Below are positions 1 to 9,638 of a stretch of 9,638 nucleotides of DNA, piece by piece. Every line of letters begins with the position of its first letter. Position 1 is the stretch's first letter. The stretch is from a virus (lineage: Duplodnaviria; Heunggongvirae; Uroviricota; Caudoviricetes): positions 1-9,638 of the IMG/VR virus record IMGVR_UViG_2537561977_000015; one strand, written 5' to 3'. A program made the translations under genes and the position numbers. The notes below the pieces were generated by a model. The model searched no databases. It saw nothing but the letters and a program-made list of their open reading frames with translations, and was not told the origin of the DNA.

Positions 1-993
1 CTAATCGATGGACAGTTTATGGACACTTTCAGCCAGCGGATTAAAGTTGATCGCGTCCTGTAAGAAGTCCGGCGAAAAATGAGCGTACGTCATTGTCTGT
101 TGAATCGTGGCATGCCCAAGAATTCGTTGTAACGTAACAATATTTCCGCCATTCATCATAAAGTGTGTGGCAAATGTATGACGCATGACATGTGTAGCCT
201 GCCCCTTCGGCAAATCCGGTTTAACCTCCTGAAGAATCTCCCGGAACTCCAGATAATCAACCTGATACAACAACCCCGTCCGACGGGTTTTAATCAGCGG
301 CACGACCGAATCAGCCACAGGAACTGAGCGAGACTTCCCATTCTTGGTGTTAAAGAACGTCACCCGGTTGCCAACGATATGCTCTCCACGTAGTTCTGAT
401 GCTTCACGCCATCGGGCACCAGTAGAAAGACACAGAATGGCAACACGACGCGCATCACCCTCCAGTCGCTCAAGAAGCTGCTCAATCTCATCATCAGAAA
501 GAAAGGCCATTTCTGTGTTCTGAACTTTCAGTTTGCGTATACCGCGTACAGGGTTCGCGTTGTGAAAGACCTCAGCTTCAATCAGCACCGTGAACATGGT
601 AGACAAAACACATAAATCACGATTAATACTGGACGGCATTAATCCGGCCTGTAATTTCTCTGACCTATACTCGAGCATAAATTTTCGCGTCATATGACTG
701 GCACGAGGATCTCCCATTTCACGAATAACCTTCCCTAGCCTGACTCTGTAGCTATCCCCGTAAGCCTGATTACGCCCGTCAAGCATCCACCACGCATCAA
801 GCAGCTCTGATAATCGCCGCTGATCAGCTGGCTTAGCCTGCCATGGCTTGTCATGGAAGTTCTGTAACACATATTTCTCAAACTCCTGAGCCTTTGATTT
901 CAGGGTAAAGATTTTTCGAATCCGCTTTCCTTCTGCCCCCTGCGGCCTTACATCAACCTGATAACGTCCGTCTTTGAGTTGCTTAATCGACAT
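1..993 (-). CDS. int: Tyrosine site-specific recombinase (integrase), P2-phage integrase family; complete, 330 aa
   Basis: Minus-strand ORF whose stop (TAG, + strand cta) is bases 1-3 of the window. The translation carries the conserved C-terminal catalytic region of phage tyrosine integrases (...LCLSTGARWREA..., ...HVMRHTFATHFMMNGGNIVTLQRILGHATIQQTMTYAHFSPDFL...). The N-terminus MSIKQLKDGRYQVDVRP resembles P2-type integrases as I recall them. I place the start at the ATG at 991-993 (SD-like GGAGGGG upstream) rather than the TTG at 1006-1008 used in the ORF track. Confidence 0.9.
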   Translation of the reverse strand: MSIKQLKDGRYQVDVRPQGAEGKRIRKIFTLKSKAQEFEKYVLQNFHDKPWQAKPADQRRLSELLDAWWMLDGRNQAYGDSYRVRLGKVIREMGDPRASHMTRKFMLEYRSEKLQAGLMPSSINRDLCVLSTMFTVLIEAEVFHNANPVRGIRKLKVQNTEMAFLSDDEIEQLLERLEGDARRVAILCLSTGARWREASELRGEHIVGNRVTFFNTKNGKSRSVPVADSVVPLIKTRRTGLLYQVDYLEFREILQEVKPDLPKGQATHVMRHTFATHFMMNGGNIVTLQRILGHATIQQTMTYAHFSPDFLQDAINFNPLAESVHKLSID

Positions 994-1062
994 GATTAGC
1001 CCCTCCAACGGATAAATTAACTAAACACTCCTTGCGAGATGTAATTCGCTCAATGTGTATCG

Positions 1063-1410
1063 TCAGCCAACATTGCGGCCTGATCGGGGTGATTTTTGGG
1101 TAATGCCGATTGAAGGCTGATCGTCCTCCAACTGAATAGAGCCATCAAGAGAGAGAGCCGGGGCTATCTGCCCTCCGGCTTCAAATGTTTCATCTGTCGT
1201 TAACCAAAGCGCATACTTTTTGAGTCGTGAATTCTTTGTAATCTTGAACAAAATTTCACTCCCTATCCCTTCTTGTCTTCCCGTTTCGTAATATCTTTGG
1301 GTATTAACCGGAATCCCTGTAAGTTCAAAGAATTGCTTTCTTGTCAGCCCTTCACTCTTCCGGATCAATAAAATTTTCTCGCCAATACATGTTGACAGTG
1401 TCGAATTCAT
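1063..1410 (-). CDS. Immunity repressor, P2 C-repressor-like / short XRE-type HTH protein (115 aa)
   Basis: Small minus-strand ORF directly upstream of and co-oriented with int, the position of the immunity repressor in P2-like phages. The N-terminal region has an HTH-like segment (KILLIRKSEGLTRKQFFELTGIPVNTQRYYETGR) and a GQIAPAL segment that I recall from P2 C-family repressors. Family assignment is from memory, not a search. Confidence 0.7.
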   Translation of the reverse strand: MNSTLSTCIGEKILLIRKSEGLTRKQFFELTGIPVNTQRYYETGRQEGIGSEILFKITKNSRLKKYALWLTTDETFEAGGQIAPALSLDGSIQLEDDQPSIGITQKSPRSGRNVG

Positions 1411-1511
1411 ACTACTAAAATCCTCTCAAAGTGTCGTAATCTCGACATTGAAACAAACCAAAACAAACCATCACAAGGCGCGACAAGCGTACCAATGCAA
1501 GAGGATAACAA
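1411..1511. promoter_or_regulatory. Divergent switch region between repressor and early operon; contains a perfect tandem direct repeat AAACAAACCA x2 (1451..1470) and a short palindrome TGTCG-N6-CGACA (1433..1449)
   Basis: A 101-bp non-coding gap between two divergently transcribed genes. The tandem 10-mer is read directly from the sequence. P2-type C repressors are known to bind direct repeats overlapping the early promoter, so this is a candidate operator. Exact -35/-10 elements could not be assigned confidently. Confidence 0.5.
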
Positions 1512-2033
1512 ATGCGGGACATCATTGCCGATAAAGAGTTATCTGACACCAAACAACCTCACGCAAGTAGCGGCATTAGCGAATCCGTTGATGCCGCCAA
1601 CGACAACGAACACGAAGAAAACAAGAAAAAGCGTTCCTACAAAAAAGGAGCGACTTTACGGCTGGATGGTCCGATCGCCGGGCTTTGCTCTCTGGAAAAA
1701 GGCGCGGCATATATTGGGCTAACAAAATCTGCACTGCGCGTAGCCATTCATCGCGGTCAAATGCCGGGACATAAAACGCGCACTAACCCGGAAGATGAAA
1801 ACTCAGACGGCGTATGGTGGTTTAACGCCAAAGAGTGGGACAAGTTGGCTGATGAGCTACCAGAGTGCGAACCACCAGAATGGCACAACTGGAAAAGTTA
1901 CTGGACGTATGACCGCCAGAAAAGAAAGTTCTCTCCAGCCAACAAAGAAGACTGCCAGACCGTTAACGGAAAACGGGTTTATACAGGCAGAAGCTCAAAG
2001 CTGGAGCGACTCAAAAGTAACCAGGTCAACTAA
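1512..2033 (+). CDS. Early-operon DNA-binding protein, Cox/Apl-like (excisionase/regulator-like) with N- and C-terminal extensions, 173 aa
   Basis: First gene of the rightward operon, divergent from the repressor. SD GAGGA lies 7 nt upstream of the ATG. The internal segment GAAYIGLTKSALRVAIHRGQMP followed by a W-rich segment (GVWWFNAKEW) resembles the HTH-plus-wing layout of Cox/excisionase-type proteins. The protein is about twice the length of P2 Cox, so this assignment is tentative. Confidence 0.55.
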   Translation: MRDIIADKELSDTKQPHASSGISESVDAANDNEHEENKKKRSYKKGATLRLDGPIAGLCSLEKGAAYIGLTKSALRVAIHRGQMPGHKTRTNPEDENSDGVWWFNAKEWDKLADELPECEPPEWHNWKSYWTYDRQKRKFSPANKEDCQTVNGKRVYTGRSSKLERLKSNQVN

Positions 2034-2260
2034 ACACATAAAAATGACCAGCCATATCATCAGCGCCATTCTAACCCTTGTGTTTATTGAGATAGGCGTA
2101 ATAGCGATTTATTTTTTCGCAAGTTAACGAGACATGAAGAACGCTTTATTGATCTCAATATTGAGTACGTCGCCGCTTATGCCAAAGGGCTTTTTCCGAC
2201 TGCCATTGGTGCGGTTCTCATAGCGTTTGTTATTTGGCTCATTGAGTAGAGGCACGAAAA

Positions 2261-2671
2261 ATGAATAAGCAGCAAAAAAGCAACACCAATAACGCCCAGC
2301 TCCTAGTGCAACCGGAGGATAAAAGCCTACAGGAACAGCTTAAGTACCTAGATGAGCTGAAACACGACATTATCATCTTTCCGGACAATATTTGCGCTAT
2401 TGGACTGCAAGTATCCCCATTGCAACTTGCCAATACATATCGCCACCTGATCTCTGGGCAAATGCAAAACACGACAGATAACGAAGTGCCAGAAGAGGCG
2501 CGAAAGCACTTTCGTGATTCACTTGGCACAGAAGGGATCGCCATAAAGATACACCCTATTGCAGTTCACATTTCTTTTTATGGCACTCAATCCCCCGAAG
2601 AGGCAATCAAAAACATAATCAAAAGCCAAAACAAGATGACTGAGATAAAACGGGGCGTAGCAGCCCCGTAG
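2261..2671 (+). CDS. Hypothetical protein (136 aa), AT-rich accessory block
   Basis: ORF with a GAGG SD 8-9 nt upstream of the ATG. No recognisable motif. Its 3' end overlaps a hairpin that is shared with the convergent minus-strand gene. Confidence 0.55.
   Translation: MNKQQKSNTNNAQLLVQPEDKSLQEQLKYLDELKHDIIIFPDNICAIGLQVSPLQLANTYRHLISGQMQNTTDNEVPEEARKHFRDSLGTEGIAIKIHPIAVHISFYGTQSPEEAIKNIIKSQNKMTEIKRGVAAP
2650..2669 (-). terminator. Hairpin ACGGGGC-GTAGCA-GCCCCGT; candidate intrinsic terminator for the leftward small gene (U-run on the minus strand only)
   Basis: 7-bp GC-rich stem with a 6-nt loop read from the sequence. On the minus strand it is followed by TTTT. On the plus strand no T-run follows. 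It lies 8 bp past the stop of the minus-strand gene 2678..2857. Confidence 0.4.
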
Positions 2672-2677
2672 AGACTC

Positions 2678-2857
2678 TCAGAAAATAGTGACACTGAACC
2701 CAACAGGATACTTAGTGTTGCTTTCGTTGAGAATTTTGAACGCCAAATCGCGGATTGTTGCAGCAGGATGTTCCTGACTTACCGCCTGAACAGGTGTTTG
2801 CTCAAGGGTATCGAGAAGTTTTTTCATTTGTTCAATGACTTCTTCATGTGAATTCAT
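2678..2857 (-). CDS. Hypothetical small protein (59 aa) encoded opposite to the surrounding early genes
   Basis: Strong SD (AAGGAG) 6 nt upstream of the ATG at 2855-2857 on the minus strand. The ORF track's longer 82-aa version has an N-terminal extension (MVVCCAAFGQ...) that looks non-coding, so I trimmed it to this start. Convergent with 2261..2671 and divergent from 2989..3339. Confidence 0.55.
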   Translation of the reverse strand: MNSHEEVIEQMKKLLDTLEQTPVQAVSQEHPAATIRDLAFKILNESNTKYPVGFSVTIF

Positions 2858-2988
2858 ATGAACTCCTTTTTCAGTGGTGGTTATATCAATAGCTTTCTGG
2901 CCGAAGGCTGCACAACAAACTACCACAAAACCATGCGCCGGGCATGGCTAAAACCCGGCACTAATTCACAACAGCAGTAGGGTCTTGC

Positions 2989-3339
2989 ATGAAACAACAA
3001 AGCAATTCTTCACAACGGCGCTTCCGCAACGGCGCAGAACGCCATGCTAACCGTTTCGCTACCAGTGCATCACGTAGCAGCTCTCGCTACAGCCTGAGCG
3101 AAACACACGCAACACCGGATGGCCACGCTGTAAAACAAATCGGCGAGCACACCTGGCTGATTGAGAAAGCTGGAATCGTGGTTCACAGGTGCCCCCGCAA
3201 CCCATTTACCGGAAACCGCATTTTTGCACTGAGCAGCGGCGACAATCAGTTCGGACAGGATTTCACATTGTACGAAGCGCTACGCACGGTTGACCGCTTA
3301 ATTGCAGGACGTAGTTTTCAGCATCCACGGGGGAATTAA
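2989..3339 (+). CDS. Hypothetical protein (116 aa), Ser/Arg-rich N-terminus
   Basis: ORF at the start of a tightly packed plus-strand gene string. The SD is weak. No recognisable motif. Confidence 0.5.
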   Translation: MKQQSNSSQRRFRNGAERHANRFATSASRSSSRYSLSETHATPDGHAVKQIGEHTWLIEKAGIVVHRCPRNPFTGNRIFALSSGDNQFGQDFTLYEALRTVDRLIAGRSFQHPRGN

Positions 3340-3342
3340 CCA

Positions 3343-3597
3343 ATGGCAACAACGACAAAAAACATGGTAGAGATAGCCTCGGCCTACACTATTATCATGC
3401 ACCGGCTCATAGATAATAATGCCCGTGATGCATTAAATACGATAAAACCTTTGTCGGAAGCAAAAAGCGATATTATCAGCGGATTAAAGTCACTACAGGA
3501 ATGCGCACGCTATGCAGGTGATCACGCCGCATACATGACCATTAACGATACAATTGAGCGCATTGAATCAGGTAAACCATTAAGAGCTTTTGTTTAA
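3343..3597 (+). CDS. Hypothetical protein (84 aa)
   Basis: Begins 4 nt after the previous stop. GGGGGAA SD-like sequence upstream. AT-rich composition matching its neighbours. Confidence 0.55.
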   Translation: MATTTKNMVEIASAYTIIMHRLIDNNARDALNTIKPLSEAKSDIISGLKSLQECARYAGDHAAYMTINDTIERIESGKPLRAFV

Positions 3598-3617
3598 TTG
3601 TTTTCTGGGGAAATGCA

Positions 3618-3860
3618 ATGGGCAAAGAATATAAAACTCTCATTAACAAAGCACTTGAGCGTTTTTATTTTCGCTTAAACACATCAGGGGTCCACGCCGA
3701 ACACGCAGCCCATGATTCATTAGCAAGAGCAATCAGAAGTCTTTATGACGTACCCTTTTATGCTGACGATTTGGATGCAATTAACGAGCTTTCCGAACTC
3801 GTCTGCGCCGCAGAATGCGGAGAGCGCATTGAACCATATAAACTGGGGAATATCGTATGA
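3618..3860 (+). CDS. Hypothetical protein (80 aa)
   Basis: GGGGAAA SD-like sequence upstream of the ATG. Its stop overlaps the start of the next small ORF (ATGA). Confidence 0.55.
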   Translation: MGKEYKTLINKALERFYFRLNTSGVHAEHAAHDSLARAIRSLYDVPFYADDLDAINELSELVCAAECGERIEPYKLGNIV

Positions 3861-3970
3861 GTATATTTATATCATGGATTGTTCTGATTATTTCGGTGGC
3901 CTGCGCAATCGGGATTATGCGAATTATTAATTCAGTAAAAAAGATTGAACGCTTTTTCACTGAAGAATAA
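3857..3970 (+). CDS. Small membrane peptide (37 aa: MSIFISWIVLIISVACAIGIMRIINSVKKIERFFTEE), one predicted transmembrane helix plus a charged tail
   Basis: Not in the ORF track because it is below the size cutoff. Found by reading: ATG at 3857 overlaps the upstream TGA stop (ATGA coupling), GGGGAA SD-like sequence 7-8 nt upstream, hydrophobic N-terminal 20 residues followed by a basic/acidic tail, in-frame stop TAA at 3968-3970. Confidence 0.45.
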   Translation: MSIFISWIVLIISVACAIGIMRIINSVKKIERFFTEE

Positions 3971-4063
3971 TCGCGCAAATAAGATTTCAGGTTAAATAAG
4001 AAAATGTAAAAACAATCCGCATTCGCGGAGGTATTCGCACAAGTAAATAACGGAGATACAAAA

Positions 4064-4474
4064 ATGCTCGAAAAAGAAGAAGGTATTATCAAAGCACTGA
4101 AAGAAATTTCAAAGACAGAAAACGAAGTAGCGAAAAAAGCCGTGGCAAATGCTCATATGAACGTCGCAACCCACACACTGATAGTCGCAAGAGTCACGGC
4201 AGAAGCAGCCGAAATTATCGCAAAACAGAATGCTGAACTGGCAGTTCTCAGAACACAACCAGTCACCGGACTGGATTTGTCTAACACCGGACGCCTTATT
4301 TACACAATTGATTCGGAGCTAAAGCCATACATCATTCTCGCCGGAGTGCAGGATAAATACCTGATTACCCTTTACCCCATAAAAGAATCAGAAATCATGA
4401 AAGACCTCCGCCTGATTGAGCGCACTCACGCTGTATTTACTGATGCCGCACAACGCGCCGTATTAAACGCATAA
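4064..4474 (+). CDS. Hypothetical protein (136 aa)
   Basis: ORF with a GGAG SD about 9 nt upstream. Last gene of the AT-rich block. No recognisable motif. Confidence 0.55.
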   Translation: MLEKEEGIIKALKEISKTENEVAKKAVANAHMNVATHTLIVARVTAEAAEIIAKQNAELAVLRTQPVTGLDLSNTGRLIYTIDSELKPYIILAGVQDKYLITLYPIKESEIMKDLRLIERTHAVFTDAAQRAVLNA

Positions 4475-4481
4475 ACCCGTC

Positions 4482-4820
4482 ATGAAAAAACTGAAATATC
4501 TCGTGGCCCTGTTGGGCCACATCGCCAGGACAGCAACAGGATTTTACTTCCGCCCGTTCAACAAAGTATGGGACGAACACCTACAACAAATCTTGGACGA
4601 AGGTGTTCTTGAGTCAACTAACAAACATGCCGTCTTTTGGCTCTACGGCGACATATACGAAATCTGGATCAGCAACCGCTGGTTTGCGTACGGGTTCCTG
4701 TTCTGCCTGAACGGACAATTTGTAGCCCCGGCAGATGCGTACCGCCCACGTTTCCGCACCATGTACCGCCTGCATCAAATGGTACAGGCCAGCAAGGCAA
4801 AGGAGATGGGGAATGTTTAG
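4482..4820 (+). CDS. Hypothetical protein (112 aa), aromatic-rich
   Basis: ORF beginning 7 nt after the previous stop. Composition shifts to the higher GC of the downstream replication module. Its stop overlaps the next gene's start region. Confidence 0.5.
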   Translation: MKKLKYLVALLGHIARTATGFYFRPFNKVWDEHLQQILDEGVLESTNKHAVFWLYGDIYEIWISNRWFAYGFLFCLNGQFVAPADAYRPRFRTMYRLHQMVQASKAKEMGNV

Positions 4821-5019
4821 AGAATTTACCGTCATTCGTTTTACTGCCAAGGGGCGCGAGTATGAAGTTGATGAACGCCTGGTAGACCTGGACAGAACCG
4901 CGCCGTCACGCACCGAACAAGACACTCATCACATCTATCTCACTGACGGCACTTACTTCTGCGCCACCAACGTGGTGCAGGTGAATCTTATCAGACAGGT
5001 ACAGGAGTCACGCAGATGA
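4813..5019 (+). CDS. Hypothetical protein (68 aa)
   Basis: The ORF track extends this to 4735, but the ATG at 4813 has a canonical AAGGAG SD 8 nt upstream and the upstream extension (MRTAHVSAPCTACIK...) looks non-coding. Its stop overlaps the next start (ATGA). Confidence 0.55.
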   Translation: MFREFTVIRFTAKGREYEVDERLVDLDRTAPSRTEQDTHHIYLTDGTYFCATNVVQVNLIRQVQESRR

Positions 5020-5315
5020 CCATTCTGGACTACATCGCTGCTAATCCGGGTTGTAGCGGTGGAGAAATCGCCGCTGCACTGAATACCCCAACCACAACCA
5101 TTAATGCGGAGTTACGCCGTCTCTGGCGCAGCGGTTCAGTCATAAGAAAAGAGCGCAAAACAGGCGGTCGCTTTTCTTATCAGGTAAACCCGATGCCGTT
5201 CGGGTGTAGCAACCCACTAACCCAGATGTTCAACCAGTTACTGAAGGAAGCCAGAGCATGCACAAAGCCTTTGAACGATGGATGCGCCAGCGCTATGGCA
5301 ACCGCTACGACCTGA
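5016..5315 (+). CDS. Putative winged-helix DNA-binding protein (99 aa)
   Basis: AGGAG SD 8 nt upstream. The N-terminal 60 residues (ILDYIAANPGCSGGEIAAALNTPTTTINAELRRLWRSGSVIRKERKTGGRFSYQV) have the helix-turn-helix plus beta-hairpin wing pattern of MarR/ArsR-type winged helices. The low-complexity C-terminal tail overlaps the next ORF. Confidence 0.5.
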   Translation: MTILDYIAANPGCSGGEIAAALNTPTTTINAELRRLWRSGSVIRKERKTGGRFSYQVNPMPFGCSNPLTQMFNQLLKEARACTKPLNDGCASAMATATT

Positions 5316-5404
5316 CGAAAGATACCGATGGCTACTACTGCCGCGAAGTTGTGAAACGAATGTTTGAAGTGTGGCGCTACTGCCGCAGCTTATACGTTGA
5401 ATAA
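5258..5404 (+). CDS. Hypothetical small protein (48 aa: MHKAFERWMRQRYGNRYDLTKDTDGYYCREVVKRMFEVWRYCRSLYVE)
   Basis: Not in the ORF track. ATG at 5258 with a GGAAG SD-like sequence 9 nt upstream and codon usage typical of the surrounding genes. Overlaps the 3' tail of 5016..5315 in another frame. Stop TAA at 5402-5404. Confidence 0.4.
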   Translation: MHKAFERWMRQRYGNRYDLTKDTDGYYCREVVKRMFEVWRYCRSLYVE

Positions 5405-5476
5405 AACAGGTCATCGCCGATGCGCATACAAAAAAACCGCTTGCCATGCCGCAATCAGCCAGGTTACATTTCCGCT

Positions 5477-5551
5477 GCACCTCATAAAACGGGTGCCGGG
5501 ATTTCCACCCCGCTGACAAACGTAGCGCACAACCGCGCCAGCGGTTTTTTT
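5477..5551 (+). ncRNA. Candidate small RNA (about 75 nt) ending at an intrinsic terminator; speculative
   Basis: Possible sigma70 promoter (-35 TTGCCA at 5441..5446, 18-nt spacer, -10 TACATT at 5465..5470) followed by a segment with internal pairing (GGGTG/CACCC) and the terminator at 5531..5551. No protein-like ORF in this stretch. The 5' end is a guess. Confidence 0.2.
5531..5551 (+). terminator. Rho-independent terminator: AACCGC-GCCA-GCGGTT followed by a T-run
   Basis: 6-bp stem with a GCCA loop, followed by 7 consecutive T on the plus strand (5545..5551). It lies about 130 nt downstream of the last gene of the preceding operon. Confidence 0.6.
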
Positions 5552-5730
5552 GTGCGTACTGTATCGCCACGTCTTTTTCGCACACGAATTATGGTGGGGC
5601 GTACGGGGCCGACTTCGGTCGGGCCGGGTTCTGCGTTTGCCGGTTGTGGAAACCCTGTACGTCTCACCACCCCGAGTTTTCCACCTCTGGATGGTGAGTT
5701 TTCAAAACTTACACACGTAGAGGCCACATC

Positions 5731-5961
5731 ATGGCAAACCGCAAACAACAGCGCGCATACGCTGCGCGTCGTCACATCCAGACTGAAATCAACCGCAGAC
5801 TTTTCCGCGCATCACGCGTCGCGCAAATCATGCACATCAATATGCTGCATGAGCGCAGCCACGCACTATCGAACACCTATTGCGCCTCTGTTTTCAGCTA
5901 TCTGGCGGATGATCTGCACGAGCTTCAGCAGCTCATTCAGCAGCAAAACAAACTCCATTAA
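5731..5961 (+). CDS. Hypothetical small basic protein (76 aa), first gene after the structured intergenic region
   Basis: AGAGG SD 8 nt upstream of the ATG. Arg/Gln-rich helical-looking protein. Position and size resemble the small accessory proteins that precede the replication gene in P2-like phages, but I cannot assign a family from sequence. Confidence 0.55.
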   Translation: MANRKQQRAYAARRHIQTEINRRLFRASRVAQIMHINMLHERSHALSNTYCASVFSYLADDLHELQQLIQQQNKLH

Positions 5962-6033
5962 TTCCTGTTCCGGGCCTTTCCTGCACCTTGCGGCGGGAGG
6001 CCTTCGCACATCTGTAACAAGAGGATTGCCGCA

Positions 6034-6399
6034 ATGATTCTCGCCAACGACTTTCTTGAATACCTGCTCAACACAGAACGTGATCTTGCCGCTCGCGTGC
6101 GTGATCGTTATGACATGTACCTGAAATCCCTGCCTGTACCGCAGCTCGCTGACGGAAAAATTGTTATTGATGGCCGCTACATGATTGACAGCCATGAGGG
6201 AAATTACAGGCTTTACCGCATTGAAGGCGGCACCCCGTCCGTTATTGGCATTTACCAGCGCCCATCCTCTGCAATCGTCGATGTGATTGCCGACAGCATC
6301 CGCATCACACATCGCCATGCCGACACAGAAGACACCGTGCTGGAAATTCAGCGGCTGGCTACCGTCTGCCGCGACACCCTGAATGGCATGACGAAGTAA
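6034..6399 (+). CDS. Hypothetical protein (121 aa) immediately upstream of the replication initiator
   Basis: AAGAGGA SD 9 nt upstream. Compact ORF whose stop lies 6 nt before the next ATG. No recognisable motif. Confidence 0.55.
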   Translation: MILANDFLEYLLNTERDLAARVRDRYDMYLKSLPVPQLADGKIVIDGRYMIDSHEGNYRLYRIEGGTPSVIGIYQRPSSAIVDVIADSIRITHRHADTEDTVLEIQRLATVCRDTLNGMTK

Positions 6400-6405
6400 A
6401 TCACT

Positions 6406-6852
6406 ATGGCGGCAGAGTACATCAGGGACTGGCAACAACCGCGCCACGCAGTGGGGCGTGAAGGAACGGGGATCCCCGCTCCTGAATCCGCGCTTTCCTC
6501 CTGGCTGGATGCCTACCGGGCAGAGAACGAGCGCCGCCAGGAAATGGCTGATGCGGCGTTCTCCGCCACGACGCTGGGCAACCTGATTAATAAAAGCCTG
6601 GATGCACAGGAAAAACAGGACAAAACCATCACACTGGCAGGAGACGCCAGAAAACAGGCACGCGGCGCGGTGGATGAAGCCATGGCCTCGCTGCGCCTGC
6701 TGCCGTCCTATCTGCGCGATCCGCTTATTCGCCGCCTCTCTTTCCTGCGCAAAAACAGGAAGCCGATCGTCAGAAAGGCAAAAAGAGCCGACAGCAGAAC
6801 GCTATGCACGCGGAACCCTGCGCAAAATATTCGAACGTCTGGACCGCACTGA
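6406..6852 (+). CDS. Probable N-terminal part of the gene-A-like replication initiator, in a different frame from the main ORF (frame disruption near 6780)
   Basis: Protein-like translation from 6406 to about 6790, with a degenerate tail after that. The overlapping frame of 6602..9226 becomes protein-like only from about 6790. An A5 run sits at the junction (6780..6784). Confidence 0.45.
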   Translation: MAAEYIRDWQQPRHAVGREGTGIPAPESALSSWLDAYRAENERRQEMADAAFSATTLGNLINKSLDAQEKQDKTITLAGDARKQARGAVDEAMASLRLLPSYLRDPLIRRLSFLRKNRKPIVRKAKRADSRTLCTRNPAQNIRTSGPH

Positions 6853-9226
6853 CAGACACTGGCTGACACCGGGTTATCGCTCCCTTGCCGGACGTGAACG
6901 CCTGGATGATTTGCTTTACCTGCCACAGCTCAACAAGCACCAGATACAGACGCTGGCCACCATGACAGCGGCGATGTTCAGCAGCACCTTCGAAACACTC
7001 TGTGATGGCTTTGGTGCCAGAGATGGCGAGCTGACCATGGAGGTGGCGCTGAAGGCATATCAGATGCTGGCACGCATGGCGTTACATCTGCACACCATGC
7101 CGCCGCATTATGACGCACTGACAACAGACAAGGACCGGAGGAACGCACCGGATACGGAACTGCTGCCGGGCGCAATTCTTCGCCTGACCTGTGCGGAATG
7201 GTGGAAACGCAAACTGTGGCTGTTACGTTGCGAGTGGAGAGAAGAACAACTCCGCGCCGCCTGTCTGGTTTCCAGAAAAACATCACCCTATCTGAGCCAG
7301 GACGCGTTAAGCGCGTTTCGCGCACAGCGCGAGAAAACACGCGATTTCCTGAAAAGTTTCATGCTGGAAAATGAAGACGGGTTCACGATTGATCTCGAGA
7401 CGGTGTATTACGCGGGAGTAAGTAACCCGGTTCACCGTAAGGCAGAAATGATGGCCACCATGAAGGGACTGGAACTTCTGGCCGAAGCCCGTGGCGACAG
7501 AGCGGTGTTTCTGACTGTCACCTGCCCGTCAAAATACCACGCAACAACGGAGAACGGTCATCCGAACCCCAAATGGAACGGGGCCACCATGCGCGACTCC
7601 AGCGATTACCTGGTTAACACGTTTTTTGCGGCGGTCCGCAAAAAACTGAACCGCGACGGTCTGCGCTGGTATGGCATCCGCACGGTGGAGCCTCACCATG
7701 ACGGCACTGTGCACTGGCATATGATGGTCTTTGCACATCCGGACGAGATTGAAACCATCGTGTCCCACGTCTGCGATATTGCCATTCAGGAAGACCGCCA
7801 CGAGCTGGGCGATGACATAACTCCGCGTTTTAAGGCGGAGTACGTAGACGGCTCAAAAGGCACACCAACCAGCTACATCGCCACCTACATCGGAAAGAAC
7901 CTGGACAGCCGCGCCGTGGATGGCATCGACCCGAAAACGGGCAAGCCACGCGTTGACCACGAAACCGGAAAATCAATGGCCGAGAGCGTGGAACGCGCCA
8001 TCGGCTGGGCGCGCCTTCACCGGGTCCGCCAGTTCCAGTTCTTTGGTATCCCCTCCCGTCAGGTGTGGCGTGAACTGCGCCGCCTTGCCAGCCAGATGGC
8101 ACGCAACCCGGAAGGCCCGCAACGGCTGAAGGATGACGCAATGGACGCGGTACTCGCTGCCGCTGATGCCGGATGTTTTGCCACCTACATTGAGAAACAG
8201 GGTGGCGTACTTGTTCCACGCAAAGACTACCTGATTCGCACCGCCTACGACCTCGCAGATGAGCTGAACGATTACGGTGAACAGAGCGTACAGATTTACG
8301 GGATCTGGTCGCCGCTCATTGGGGAGTCTTCCCGCGTATGCACGCATCCGGATAACTGGAAGCTGGTAAGACGCAAACCGGAAGCGGAAGACAGCGCCCG
8401 CGAAAATGGTTTTGACCTTCAGGGCGGCCCTGCCGCCCCTTGGACTCGTGGCAATAACTGTCCCCGTGTACAGGAAACGAACAACAACGGGACAGAACAG
8501 CCGGAAGAACGGCCAGCACCGTGGCCGCAGCTCCCTGACGGCGTTGAAGTGAACGAATGGATGCGCTCACTGAAACGGCACGAACGCCGGGCGCTGATGC
8601 GTTCGCTTCGTGACAAACAGGCAAAAAACAGCAGTGATGAAATGCAGAACTGGACGCAGAGCCGCAAACAGCCGCGACCTTTGCCTGATAACCACGAATT
8701 ACTCGCTAAAGAATGGCGGGAGTCTGCTGAATCTCTCGGCATGCATATCGGTGAACAACAGATGCAGCACTTGTTACGGGGCGGCAGTCTGTACGTTGAC
8801 GGCAGCATCATTGCACCGCAGGGATTTAAAATTGTACGCAAACCGGATACCCGCCCGGACAGCCGAATCACGCAACTCTGGCAACGCCTGAGCCGTAATC
8901 ACGGCGTAAGCAGCACGGAGATCCGTCATAACCCTGTCGCCAGCTATCTGGAACAGCTGGGGACATCAGACCCCGAAGCAGCCGCACGCCTGGCATCCAT
9001 ACTTCAGCAGGACCAGAACACCATGAAAACACCCGTTACCGTGCTTTCTGACATGCTGCGCGCCATCCGCGACGCAGAGCACGCACAGAGAATCAGTGAA
9101 ACCACTGAACGCGCCCGCCGCAAAGCAGACCTGCTGCGGGGTGGCCTGACCAGTGGAAACAAAAAACAGACAGAAACGGGACTCACGAATCCCGTAAATG
9201 AGCAAAAAACGCGCAGCGATATATGA
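6602..9226 (+). CDS. Rolling-circle replication initiator, P2 gene A-like HUH replication endonuclease (coordinates are those of the longest ORF; true 5' end uncertain)
   Basis: HUH metal-binding motif (TVHWHMMVF, nt 7712..7720 encode H-W-H) followed about 50 residues later by the paired catalytic tyrosines (TSYIATYIGKN, Tyr codons at 7874 and 7886). This is the signature arrangement of phiX174/P2 gpA-type Rep proteins. Other segments (LTVTCPSKYH, GIRTVEPHHDGT) resemble P2 gpA as I recall it. The first 180 nt of this frame look non-coding. Confidence 0.85.
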   Translation: MHRKNRTKPSHWQETPENRHAARWMKPWPRCACCRPICAIRLFAASLSCAKTGSRSSERQKEPTAERYARGTLRKIFERLDRTDRHWLTPGYRSLAGRERLDDLLYLPQLNKHQIQTLATMTAAMFSSTFETLCDGFGARDGELTMEVALKAYQMLARMALHLHTMPPHYDALTTDKDRRNAPDTELLPGAILRLTCAEWWKRKLWLLRCEWREEQLRAACLVSRKTSPYLSQDALSAFRAQREKTRDFLKSFMLENEDGFTIDLETVYYAGVSNPVHRKAEMMATMKGLELLAEARGDRAVFLTVTCPSKYHATTENGHPNPKWNGATMRDSSDYLVNTFFAAVRKKLNRDGLRWYGIRTVEPHHDGTVHWHMMVFAHPDEIETIVSHVCDIAIQEDRHELGDDITPRFKAEYVDGSKGTPTSYIATYIGKNLDSRAVDGIDPKTGKPRVDHETGKSMAESVERAIGWARLHRVRQFQFFGIPSRQVWRELRRLASQMARNPEGPQRLKDDAMDAVLAAADAGCFATYIEKQGGVLVPRKDYLIRTAYDLADELNDYGEQSVQIYGIWSPLIGESSRVCTHPDNWKLVRRKPEAEDSARENGFDLQGGPAAPWTRGNNCPRVQETNNNGTEQPEERPAPWPQLPDGVEVNEWMRSLKRHERRALMRSLRDKQAKNSSDEMQNWTQSRKQPRPLPDNHELLAKEWRESAESLGMHIGEQQMQHLLRGGSLYVDGSIIAPQGFKIVRKPDTRPDSRITQLWQRLSRNHGVSSTEIRHNPVASYLEQLGTSDPEAAARLASILQQDQNTMKTPVTVLSDMLRAIRDAEHAQRISETTERARRKADLLRGGLTSGNKKQTETGLTNPVNEQKTRSDI

Positions 9227-9270
9227 AGCGCGCACAAAACAGGCAAAAACGGGATTTCAGAATCCCGTAA
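9163..9270. repeat. Two copies of a 35-bp direct repeat (9163..9197 and 9236..9270, 29/35 identical), each containing the inverted repeat ACGGGA...TCCCGT
   Basis: Read directly from the sequence. Copy 1 lies inside the last 20 codons of the replication gene, copy 2 in the gap before the ParM-like gene. The stems are conserved while the loops differ at 4 positions. Confidence 0.6.
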
Positions 9271-9302
9271 TCGATTAATTAATCAACATAAGGAAAAGCG
9301 AC

Positions 9303-9638
9303 ATGAAAATTTGTATCGACGACGGCTCCACCAACATCAAGCTGGCATGGACTGAGAACGGCGAACGCCGCAACGCCATCAGCCCGAACAGCTTCAAGTC
9401 GGAATGGTCTGCGCCGTTCGGTGGCATGCAGCCCGCGAACTACATGCTTGATGGCGTGCGCTATGGTTTTGATCCGGTCAGCGATCGCTTTGTCCAGACA
9501 ACCGACACGCAATACCAATACAGCGATGTAAATGTCATTGCCATTCATCACGCGCTGGTCAAATCAGGCATCACGCCACAGGAGGTGGATGTGGTTGTCA
9601 CCCTGCCACTGAGCGAGTATTTCGACACAAACGCACAG
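9303..9638 (+). CDS. parM: ParM/StbA-family actin-like segregation ATPase, N-terminal 112 codons (truncated by window end)
   Basis: AAGGA SD 9 nt upstream of the ATG. The N-terminus MKICIDDGSTNIKLAW...ISPNSFK...YSDVNVIAIHHAL...VDVVVTLPLSEY closely matches the phosphate-1 motif and N-terminal region of plasmid R1 ParM (MLVFIDDGSTNIKLQW...ISPNSFK...YSDVNVVAVHHAL...) as I recall it. Confidence 0.75.
   Translation, partial: MKICIDDGSTNIKLAWTENGERRNAISPNSFKSEWSAPFGGMQPANYMLDGVRYGFDPVSDRFVQTTDTQYQYSDVNVIAIHHALVKSGITPQEVDVVVTLPLSEYFDTNAQ

Follow-up and report, generated by a model that had tools for sequence, protein, structure and literature searches.

Two repeats that lie where the replication gene gpA meets the parM gene of a P2-like prophage probably serve as centromere and operator (parC) of a type II (ParMRC) partition cassette carried by the phage, as judged from comparisons of sequence. 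The stretch of viral DNA analysed here (Caudoviricetes; IMG/VR record IMGVR_UViG_2537561977_000015, positions 1 to 9,638), referred to below as the window, comprises 9,638 nucleotides and ends within parM, which encodes an actin-like ATPase. The two repeats, the spacer between them and a short AT-rich palindrome would together constitute the cis-acting leader of the cassette, 142 bp long, and the cassette itself occupies the gpA-gpQ cargo hotspot of a P88-like prophage of the P2 family. In related prophages the repeats are inherited as one unit with parM-parR, independently of gpA.

Anatomy of the repeats upstream of parM

A repeat search of the window revealed one two-copy family of direct repeats (9160-9197 and 9233-9270; 38 nt, 82% identical, 73 nt from start to start), each copy of which contains a 20-bp palindrome, ACGGGAyT-N4-AATCCCGT. 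From the centre of palindrome 1 to the centre of palindrome 2 the distance is 73 bp. An earlier reading, made from the letters of the window without database searches (the sequence-only reading), had described an inverted repeat of 6 to 8 bp in each copy. This description is accurate: the pairing is perfect over 6 bp in copy 1 and over 8 bp in copy 2, and in most relatives palindrome 1 is perfect too (ACGGGATT-CACA-AATCCCGT). The repeats had also been placed at the stop of gpA and just before the parM gene. The second position stands, repeat 2 ending about 33-35 bp before the parM ATG (9303), whereas the gpA stop codon (TGA, 9224-9226) is located in the spacer between the two repeats and repeat 1 lies inside the last 21 codons.

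The window was scanned for ACGGGA-N8-TCCCGT with ≤2 mismatches, which gave 3 matches against 0.21 expected; as many as 3 were reached in 0/200 shuffles. In the complete genome of phage P88 the two copies are the sole palindrome matches at ≤3 mismatches, and no further copies, for which the sequence-only reading had suggested a search, are present elsewhere in the element at this stringency. Tandem Repeats Finder (TRF) returned 0 rows for a tandem array.

The repeats belong to the parM-parR cassette

The genomes of Escherichia phage P88 and other Xuanwuvirus members (P2-like, Peduoviridae) show 96-98% identity to the window, and prophages in 1372/5426 complete E. coli genomes match the window at the gpA-parM junction. 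The complete parM of P88 encodes 319 aa (PF06406 and PF21523); the gene after it, gp18, is a member of the ParR/StbB family (103 aa; PF10784, E = 2e-24) and corresponds to a position beyond the window end. parR is situated 3' of parM in P88 and in all relatives looked at.

The limits of the cassette were determined from partial matches in E. coli genomes and from pairwise BLAST of P88 against loci with other neighbours (denoted below by L numbers). The block common to P88 and the differing loci extends from window 9161, 142 bp ahead of the parM ATG, as far as the stop codon of parR. The left edge of repeat unit 1 coincides with the left breakpoints, found at 9161 (L091), 9162 (L042) and 9170 (L206). 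Three kinds of left neighbour adjoin the block, namely P88-type gpA, an unrelated open reading frame (ORF) of 145-155 aa and non-coding DNA, and on the right there are several neighbours. Locus L091 (H147) matches the window at 9161-9638 only; upstream of this lies another ORF, of 151 aa, whose stop comes 42 nt earlier, and no gpA is adjacent. In L042 and L206 the unrelated 145-155-aa ORF (phrog_21788) is found between gpA and parM and has in common with P88 gpA only the last ~21 codons or fewer.

Two loci in which a P88-type gpA is combined with other cargo, L089 (H148) and L090 (H149), match the window at 8800-9123 or 8800-9114 only. Their gpA homologues retain ~94% nucleotide identity up to 9114-9123 and then diverge, and no hairpins were found in either locus, both of which have gpA without parMR. 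The cargo after gpA consists there of a Dam methylase and an AAA ATPase, or of an AAA ATPase and an S8 peptidase. Since the repeats ride with parM-parR across different left neighbours and are missing from gpA with other cargo, they represent the leader of a mobile parM-parR cassette and not a feature of gpA.

The same loci bear on the idea, which takes in one of the candidates of the sequence-only reading, that gpA, an HUH endonuclease, uses the repeats in rolling-circle replication as a site of recognition, nicking or termination. Hairpins are frequent targets of HUH enzymes and the repeats are indeed situated at the gpA 3' end, but close gpA homologues in L089 and L090 do without them, and in L091, L042 and L206 they stand behind non-gpA sequence. 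As a general feature of gpA such a site is refuted by these loci, and we regard a role of this kind as extremely unlikely. A single-strand origin for lagging-strand synthesis was rejected as well, on the grounds that the repeats do not accompany gpA and with no dedicated test. The same holds, again with no dedicated test, for an integron attC-like or other site-specific recombination site (no attC-type core motif or integron integrase was noticed among the genes looked at) and for an IHF site (no consensus match by eye).

The site downstream of gpA is a hotspot of cargo swapping, as seen in L089 (3116-5324), L090 (3051-5315), L102 (3399-4778) and L093 (4602-4910). In L102 a minus-strand DUF4760 cargo follows parR, and in one hotspot locus the first ParR-family gene is followed, ~1.3 kb further downstream, by a second, orphan one.

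Repeat 1 is conserved as DNA

The translation of repeat 1 varies from locus to locus. In the window the C-terminal reading over repeat 1 ends in TGLTNPVNEQKTRSDI with the stop in the spacer; in L104 a different frame is read, ending in NGIHKSRK; in the Hafnia locus L096 the reading ends in KQKRDS, with the stop inside the hairpin 1 loop; in L042 and L206 repeat 1 forms the tail of the unrelated ORF; and in L091 it is not translated. Because repeat 1 is read in three frames, or is left untranslated, the conserved entity is the DNA and not the peptide. Any ORF arriving from upstream runs into the par leader until the first stop codon. The annotation of the window should be corrected in this respect, as the last 21 'gpA' codons are read-in from the par leader and do not belong to the replication protein.

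Conservation of the leader

Conservation was assessed on 56 distinct leaders of relatives. Distant relatives were gathered by ParR protein search and contig look-ups; a ParM scan of genome contigs gave only 3 near-identical loci. Both palindromes are kept in 56/56 leaders. The inner GGGATT/AATCCC hardly varies, polymorphism is highest at the loop positions (nucleotide diversity, pi, 0.17) and the stretch 9196-9210 is the most conserved (pi 0.010). The observation of the sequence-only reading that the loops differ and the stems are conserved holds both in the window and in these relatives.

The spacing of the palindromes was 73 bp in 34/35 perfect pairs from IMG/VR. An exact-pattern scan of the same collection detected the motif in P88-like leaders, most of them with a recognisable parM start; the remaining pattern matches have no flanking leader sequence, look like chance and were discarded. 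When the leader was compared with plasmids by blastn, only P88-like prophages or phage-like records were returned. The most distant relative, from Hafnia, encodes a ParR 74% identical and a ParM 95% identical in amino acids, and in its leader GGGATT-N4-AATCCC is present in each copy, with the A-rich left parts and the 73-bp spacing also retained. In this comparison the repeat units are identical at 56/64 positions (manual count), versus 91/149 (61%) of the parM 4-fold sites.

What the stems keep is sequence and not merely pairing. Among the 56 distinct sequences 0 pairs in hairpins 1 and 2 were altered on both sides, and in 13 of the 56 hairpin 1 is mispaired (C/A) on the + strand. In hairpin 1 most departures read A.C on the + strand, equivalent to G.U on the minus strand, and those in hairpin 2 are mostly G.U on the + strand (36 cells), equivalent to A.C mismatches on the minus strand. 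As the substitutions in the two hairpins favour opposite strands, no single RNA strand is favoured. Stems that keep their sequence, alike in both palindromes and without compensatory change, fit sequence-specific recognition by one protein at a dimeric site. The sequence-only reading had left open whether selection acts on structure or on a dimeric binding site; the absence of covariation speaks against the former and the data agree with the latter.

These data also concern the possibility that the hairpins act in the + strand mRNA, either by affecting its processing or stability or by attenuation that sets the gpA:parM expression ratio, the latter having been proposed from the sequence alone as a coupling of replication and partition genes. 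The region lies between two co-oriented genes, and 9155-9300 on the + strand folds better than shuffles (z = -4.7). However, no U-run follows either hairpin, no + strand terminator was detected by the scan of 8600-9638, Rfam gave 0 matches at E ≤ 1, and the element is present without an upstream gpA in L091. With the mispairing of hairpin 1 and the missing compensatory changes added, the attenuator is unsupported and a function in the mRNA of any of these kinds is very unlikely.

The sole compensatory-looking change in the leader concerns the third palindrome, GATTAATTAATC, for which relatives carry GGTTAATTAACC: 4 distinct sequences are altered on both sides and 5 are one-sided intermediates. 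This palindrome might serve as an operator or belong to a non-consensus promoter.

ParR, the presumed partner of the repeats

The gene downstream of parM encodes a true ParR homologue, and the partition centromere-like site is the candidate of the sequence-only reading that is favoured here, as the repeats move with the parM-parR block. ParR shows 26-30% identity to plasmid ParRs, with R6, F10 and P14 in the N-terminal part and the C-terminal tail conserved. A phmmer search of PDB with the single ParR sequence returned nothing meaningful; a profile of ParR sequences matches the structure of pB171 ParR (PDB 2JD3) with E = 3e-11. ParR is thus a homologue of the ribbon-helix-helix centromere-binding proteins, with a fold expected to be as in 2JD3.

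The ParR variants recovered by protein search span 94% down to 41% identity. Even where overall identity is as low as 41-57%, there is little or no variation in residues 1-30 (MTTPTRRISFYLKPAAVK.E.EAC..LDSL), the linker (residues ~65-95) is hypervariable and the C-terminal NIxALFPE tail is kept. Residues 1-30 are presumed to form the DNA-binding ribbon-helix-helix part, and the C-terminal tail, which aligns with plasmid ParRs, is what we take to be the ParM-binding part. The leaders of divergent ParR variants are almost unchanged. An invariant ParR N-terminus, presumed to read DNA, together with an invariant leader is the pattern expected of a ParR-parC pair.

The ParR proteins P0019-P0080 (relatives of P88 gp18) display extreme domain-wise mosaicism, the last 8 residues varying as little as residues 1-30, while parM and the leader stay about 95-100% identical.

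Proposed function of the leader

The leader is situated upstream of parM-parR, contains repeated motifs and is inherited jointly with parMR, all of which is characteristic of parC loci; the R1-type arrangement of ten 11-bp direct iterons and a 39-bp promoter core is absent from it. It is proposed that the two 20-bp palindromes are contacted by ParR ribbon-helix-helix dimers, which might also bind the AAAAC-type A-tract motifs beside them. As the palindromes are 73 bp apart, which is about 7 helical turns, they would be exposed on the same helix face. The resulting ParR-DNA complex (segrosome) would cap ParM filaments via the conserved C-terminal tail of ParR, with repression of the operon as a probable second role, by analogy with parC of plasmid R1.

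Several observations weigh against a centromere and operator at this position. Only two palindromes are present, versus 10 iterons in R1, and in the plasmid systems whose ParM is closest (46-52% identity) there are direct iterons with A/T-tracts but palindromes of this kind are absent. Within E. coli the stems (pi 0.058) are as diverse as parM 4-fold sites (0.061), so the evidence for constraint on the stems comes from one deeper comparison, that with Hafnia. The helical phasing of A-tracts in the leader peaks at 10.3-10.5 bp, but the observed value was reached by 308/2000 shuffles and the idea of curvature is not significant. A consensus scan of 8600-9638 found no sigma-70-like promoter on either strand, which leaves the operator role unsupported; par transcription may start from a phage early promoter or from a non-consensus promoter. 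Finally, on the minus strand both palindromes resemble terminators: the stem has 8 bp, the loop 4 nt, and the tail is rich in T (TTTTTGCCTGT and TTCTGTCTGT).

The last point raises the question of whether the hairpins are tandem intrinsic terminators (insulators) of minus-strand transcription, shielding gene A from hotspot antisense or late-operon read-through. Both were recognised in terminator form on the minus strand by the scan, most stem substitutions in hairpin 1 yield G.U on that strand, and some relatives (L102) do have minus-strand cargo downstream of parR. The bias of hairpin 2 is nevertheless opposite, with A.C on the minus strand, and neither the window ORFs nor the promoter scan, which found no promoter-like site on either strand in 8600-9638, revealed a minus-strand gene or promoter feeding these hairpins. 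Moreover, terminators placed at the leader would leave parMR itself unprotected, gpA genes with other cargo have no equivalent hairpins, and insulation leaves the exact 73-bp spacing and the identical stems of both copies unexplained. We therefore consider it unlikely.

It is also conceivable that the leader is only an operator/promoter, for ParR or for a phage regulator, the centromere being elsewhere or absent and the cassette playing a non-segregation role in a defence hotspot. The hotspot is known for anti-phage cargo (PMC9122126), an integrating phage has no obvious need for partition, and the sites are only two. On the other hand, the mosaic module contains no further non-coding DNA, ParR retains a C-terminal tail aligning with plasmid ParRs, PADLOC gave no matches, and in known ParMRC systems the operator is the centromere site (PMC2241845). 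An exclusively regulatory leader is thus distinctly unlikely, and the parC centromere with operator function remains the favoured assignment.

About a quarter of E. coli P2-like prophages carry the parM-parR cassette (PMC9122126), and this is why its cis-acting site matters. With the cassette limits (9161 to the parR stop) and the candidate ParR sites named here, it can be tested whether such prophages are kept as plasmids and whether related phages are incompatible. A more specific proposal, rather unlikely as it stands, is that the palindrome pair forms a minimal two-site centromere of a phage-borne ParMRC system, by means of which a P2-like phage that normally integrates would be maintained and segregated as an episome of low copy number. 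Alternatively, in line with the anti-phage hotspot, it might exclude related incoming phage or phage-plasmid genomes by centromere incompatibility. In either form of this proposal the left half would double as the gpA coding tail and so physically couple ParR occupancy and gpA expression.

The record NZ_CP148288.1 (L224, 1-34461), a complete 34.5-kb circular E. coli 'plasmid', consists of an entire P88-like phage genome with int, C, cox, gpA, parM, parR, portal and tail genes. It is compatible with episomal carriage of P88-like phages, or with assembled excised phage DNA.

Other features of the window

The positions of the genes and leader elements are collected in Table 1.

Table 1. Genes of the window and elements of the parM-parR leader
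Feature	Position	Strand	Description
Integrase	1-1008	minus	
C/cox early region			between integrase and gpA in gene order
gpA replication endonuclease (Phage_GPA)	6406..9226	+	broken by two 1-nt deletions versus P88; last 21 codons (9161-9223) are par leader read-in
parM-parR cassette leader, proposed parC/operator	9161..9302	+	142 bp; sole non-coding DNA inside the mosaic module
Direct repeat unit 1	9160..9197		A-rich 16-nt left part CAAAAAACAGACAGAA, palindrome 1 and TAA; in the last 21 gpA codons
Palindrome 1	9176..9195		ACGGGACTCACGAATCCCGT = ACGGGAcT-CACG-AATCCCGT; 6 bp perfect, 8 bp allowing one C/A mismatch
Spacer between palindromes	9196..9232		conserved block 9196-9210 TAAATGAGCAAAAAAC; variable GC-rich imperfect inverted repeat 9211-9233; TGA 9224-9226
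Direct repeat unit 2	9233..9270		CACAAAACAGGCAAAA, palindrome 2 and TAA; intergenic
Palindrome 2	9249..9268		ACGGGATTTCAGAATCCCGT = ACGGGATT-TCAG-AATCCCGT; 8 bp perfect, 4-nt loop
Third palindrome, AT-rich	9273..9284		GATTAATTAATC; perfect; between repeat 2 and the parM Shine-Dalgarno
parM, 5' part (actin-like ATPase)	9303..9638	+	StbA_N, E = 2e-57; cut by the window end

The gpA gene of P88 is one ORF (940 aa). In the window it lacks a single base at each of two points 44 nt from each other (after about 6750 and 6793), one of the deletions falling in an A-run and the other changing CAGGC to CAGC. As a result gpA is divided between two ORFs, 6406-6852 and 6602-9226, which overlap and use different frames. 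The split points either to a cryptic prophage that is defective in replication or to sequencing errors in homopolymers. A 22-bp near-perfect palindrome, AGGAACGGGGATCCCCGCTCCT, is located inside the 5' part of gpA at 6462-6483.

Two further inverted repeats were noted in the window. A GC-rich hairpin at 2650-2669, ACGGGGCG-TAGC-AGCCCCGT, is situated where ORF 2261-2671 ends, immediately downstream of the minus-strand ORF 2678-2926; with its T-rich tail on the minus strand it may be the terminator for this leftward ORF. Within the Ash-family ORF 5420-6037 there is a 17-nt inverted repeat (5428-5444 and 5537-5553; ACAAAAAAACCGCTTGC and GCCAGCGGTTTTTTTGT), the arms of which are 94% complementary and 92 nt apart.

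Comparison with known partition systems

According to Rousset et al. 2022, roughly one in four P2-like phages of E. coli has a 'putative plasmid partitioning system' in the gpA-gpQ interval (PMC9122126), and this is the same cassette as the one described here. No cis site is mentioned in the searched passages of that paper, with respect to which the cis site and the cassette boundaries are an addition of the present analysis. No definition of the cassette's cis-acting site, or of its role in an integrating phage, was found in the sources consulted.

In plasmid R1 the parC locus, which spans 159 bp, is located upstream of parM; a 39-bp promoter core is enclosed by 11-bp iterons in two sets of five, and R1 ParR represses the promoter and builds the partition complex at the same site (PMC2241845). 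The phage leader resembles it in being placed directly upstream of parM-parR, in having two repeat blocks that flank a core of about 35-39 bp, in its richness in A-tracts, in its size (142 bp versus 159 bp) and in the assignment of the partner ParR to the same Pfam family, PF10784. It differs in that 2 x 38-bp units with a 20-bp palindrome each replace the 2 x 5 direct 11-bp iterons, and in that its core is the most variable part, with no sigma-70 promoter found, in place of a recognisable core promoter. ParR of the phage is only 29% identical to an R1-like ParR, and an R1-like plasmid locus examined does contain the 11-bp A-tract array.

Searching phages and plasmids by tblastn revealed a gap between ParM proteins of ≥96% and those of ≤52% identity, with no intermediate plasmid system. 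The closest plasmid ParMs (52% identity) are accompanied by T-tract iterons. In the parC region of one of them, the IncL/M plasmid pSL264 (L003 1376-1478; ParM 52% identical), T-tract blocks are spaced 73 and 72 bp apart and their sequences are unrelated to the phage repeats; the shared ~73-bp spacing may be a coincidence or a shared geometric constraint.

The architecture of parC differs between systems (PMC9426499). pB171 ParR was reported to bind 10-bp direct repeats, palindromic sites not being described there (PMC9426499). The phage cassette is like pB171 par2 in that its ParR profile matches 2JD3, and unlike it in having palindromes in place of direct repeats. Palindromic sites are found in the chromosomal ParMRC system of C. 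botulinum, in which cParC consists of three palindromic repeats bound by cParR; it is placed after cParR by the figure legend and upstream by the text (PMC12270681). The sequence of cParC is unrelated to that of the phage leader, the host is Gram-positive and the repeats are three versus two here, but both are chromosome-borne and both have the form of a ParMRC centromere of palindromic repeats.

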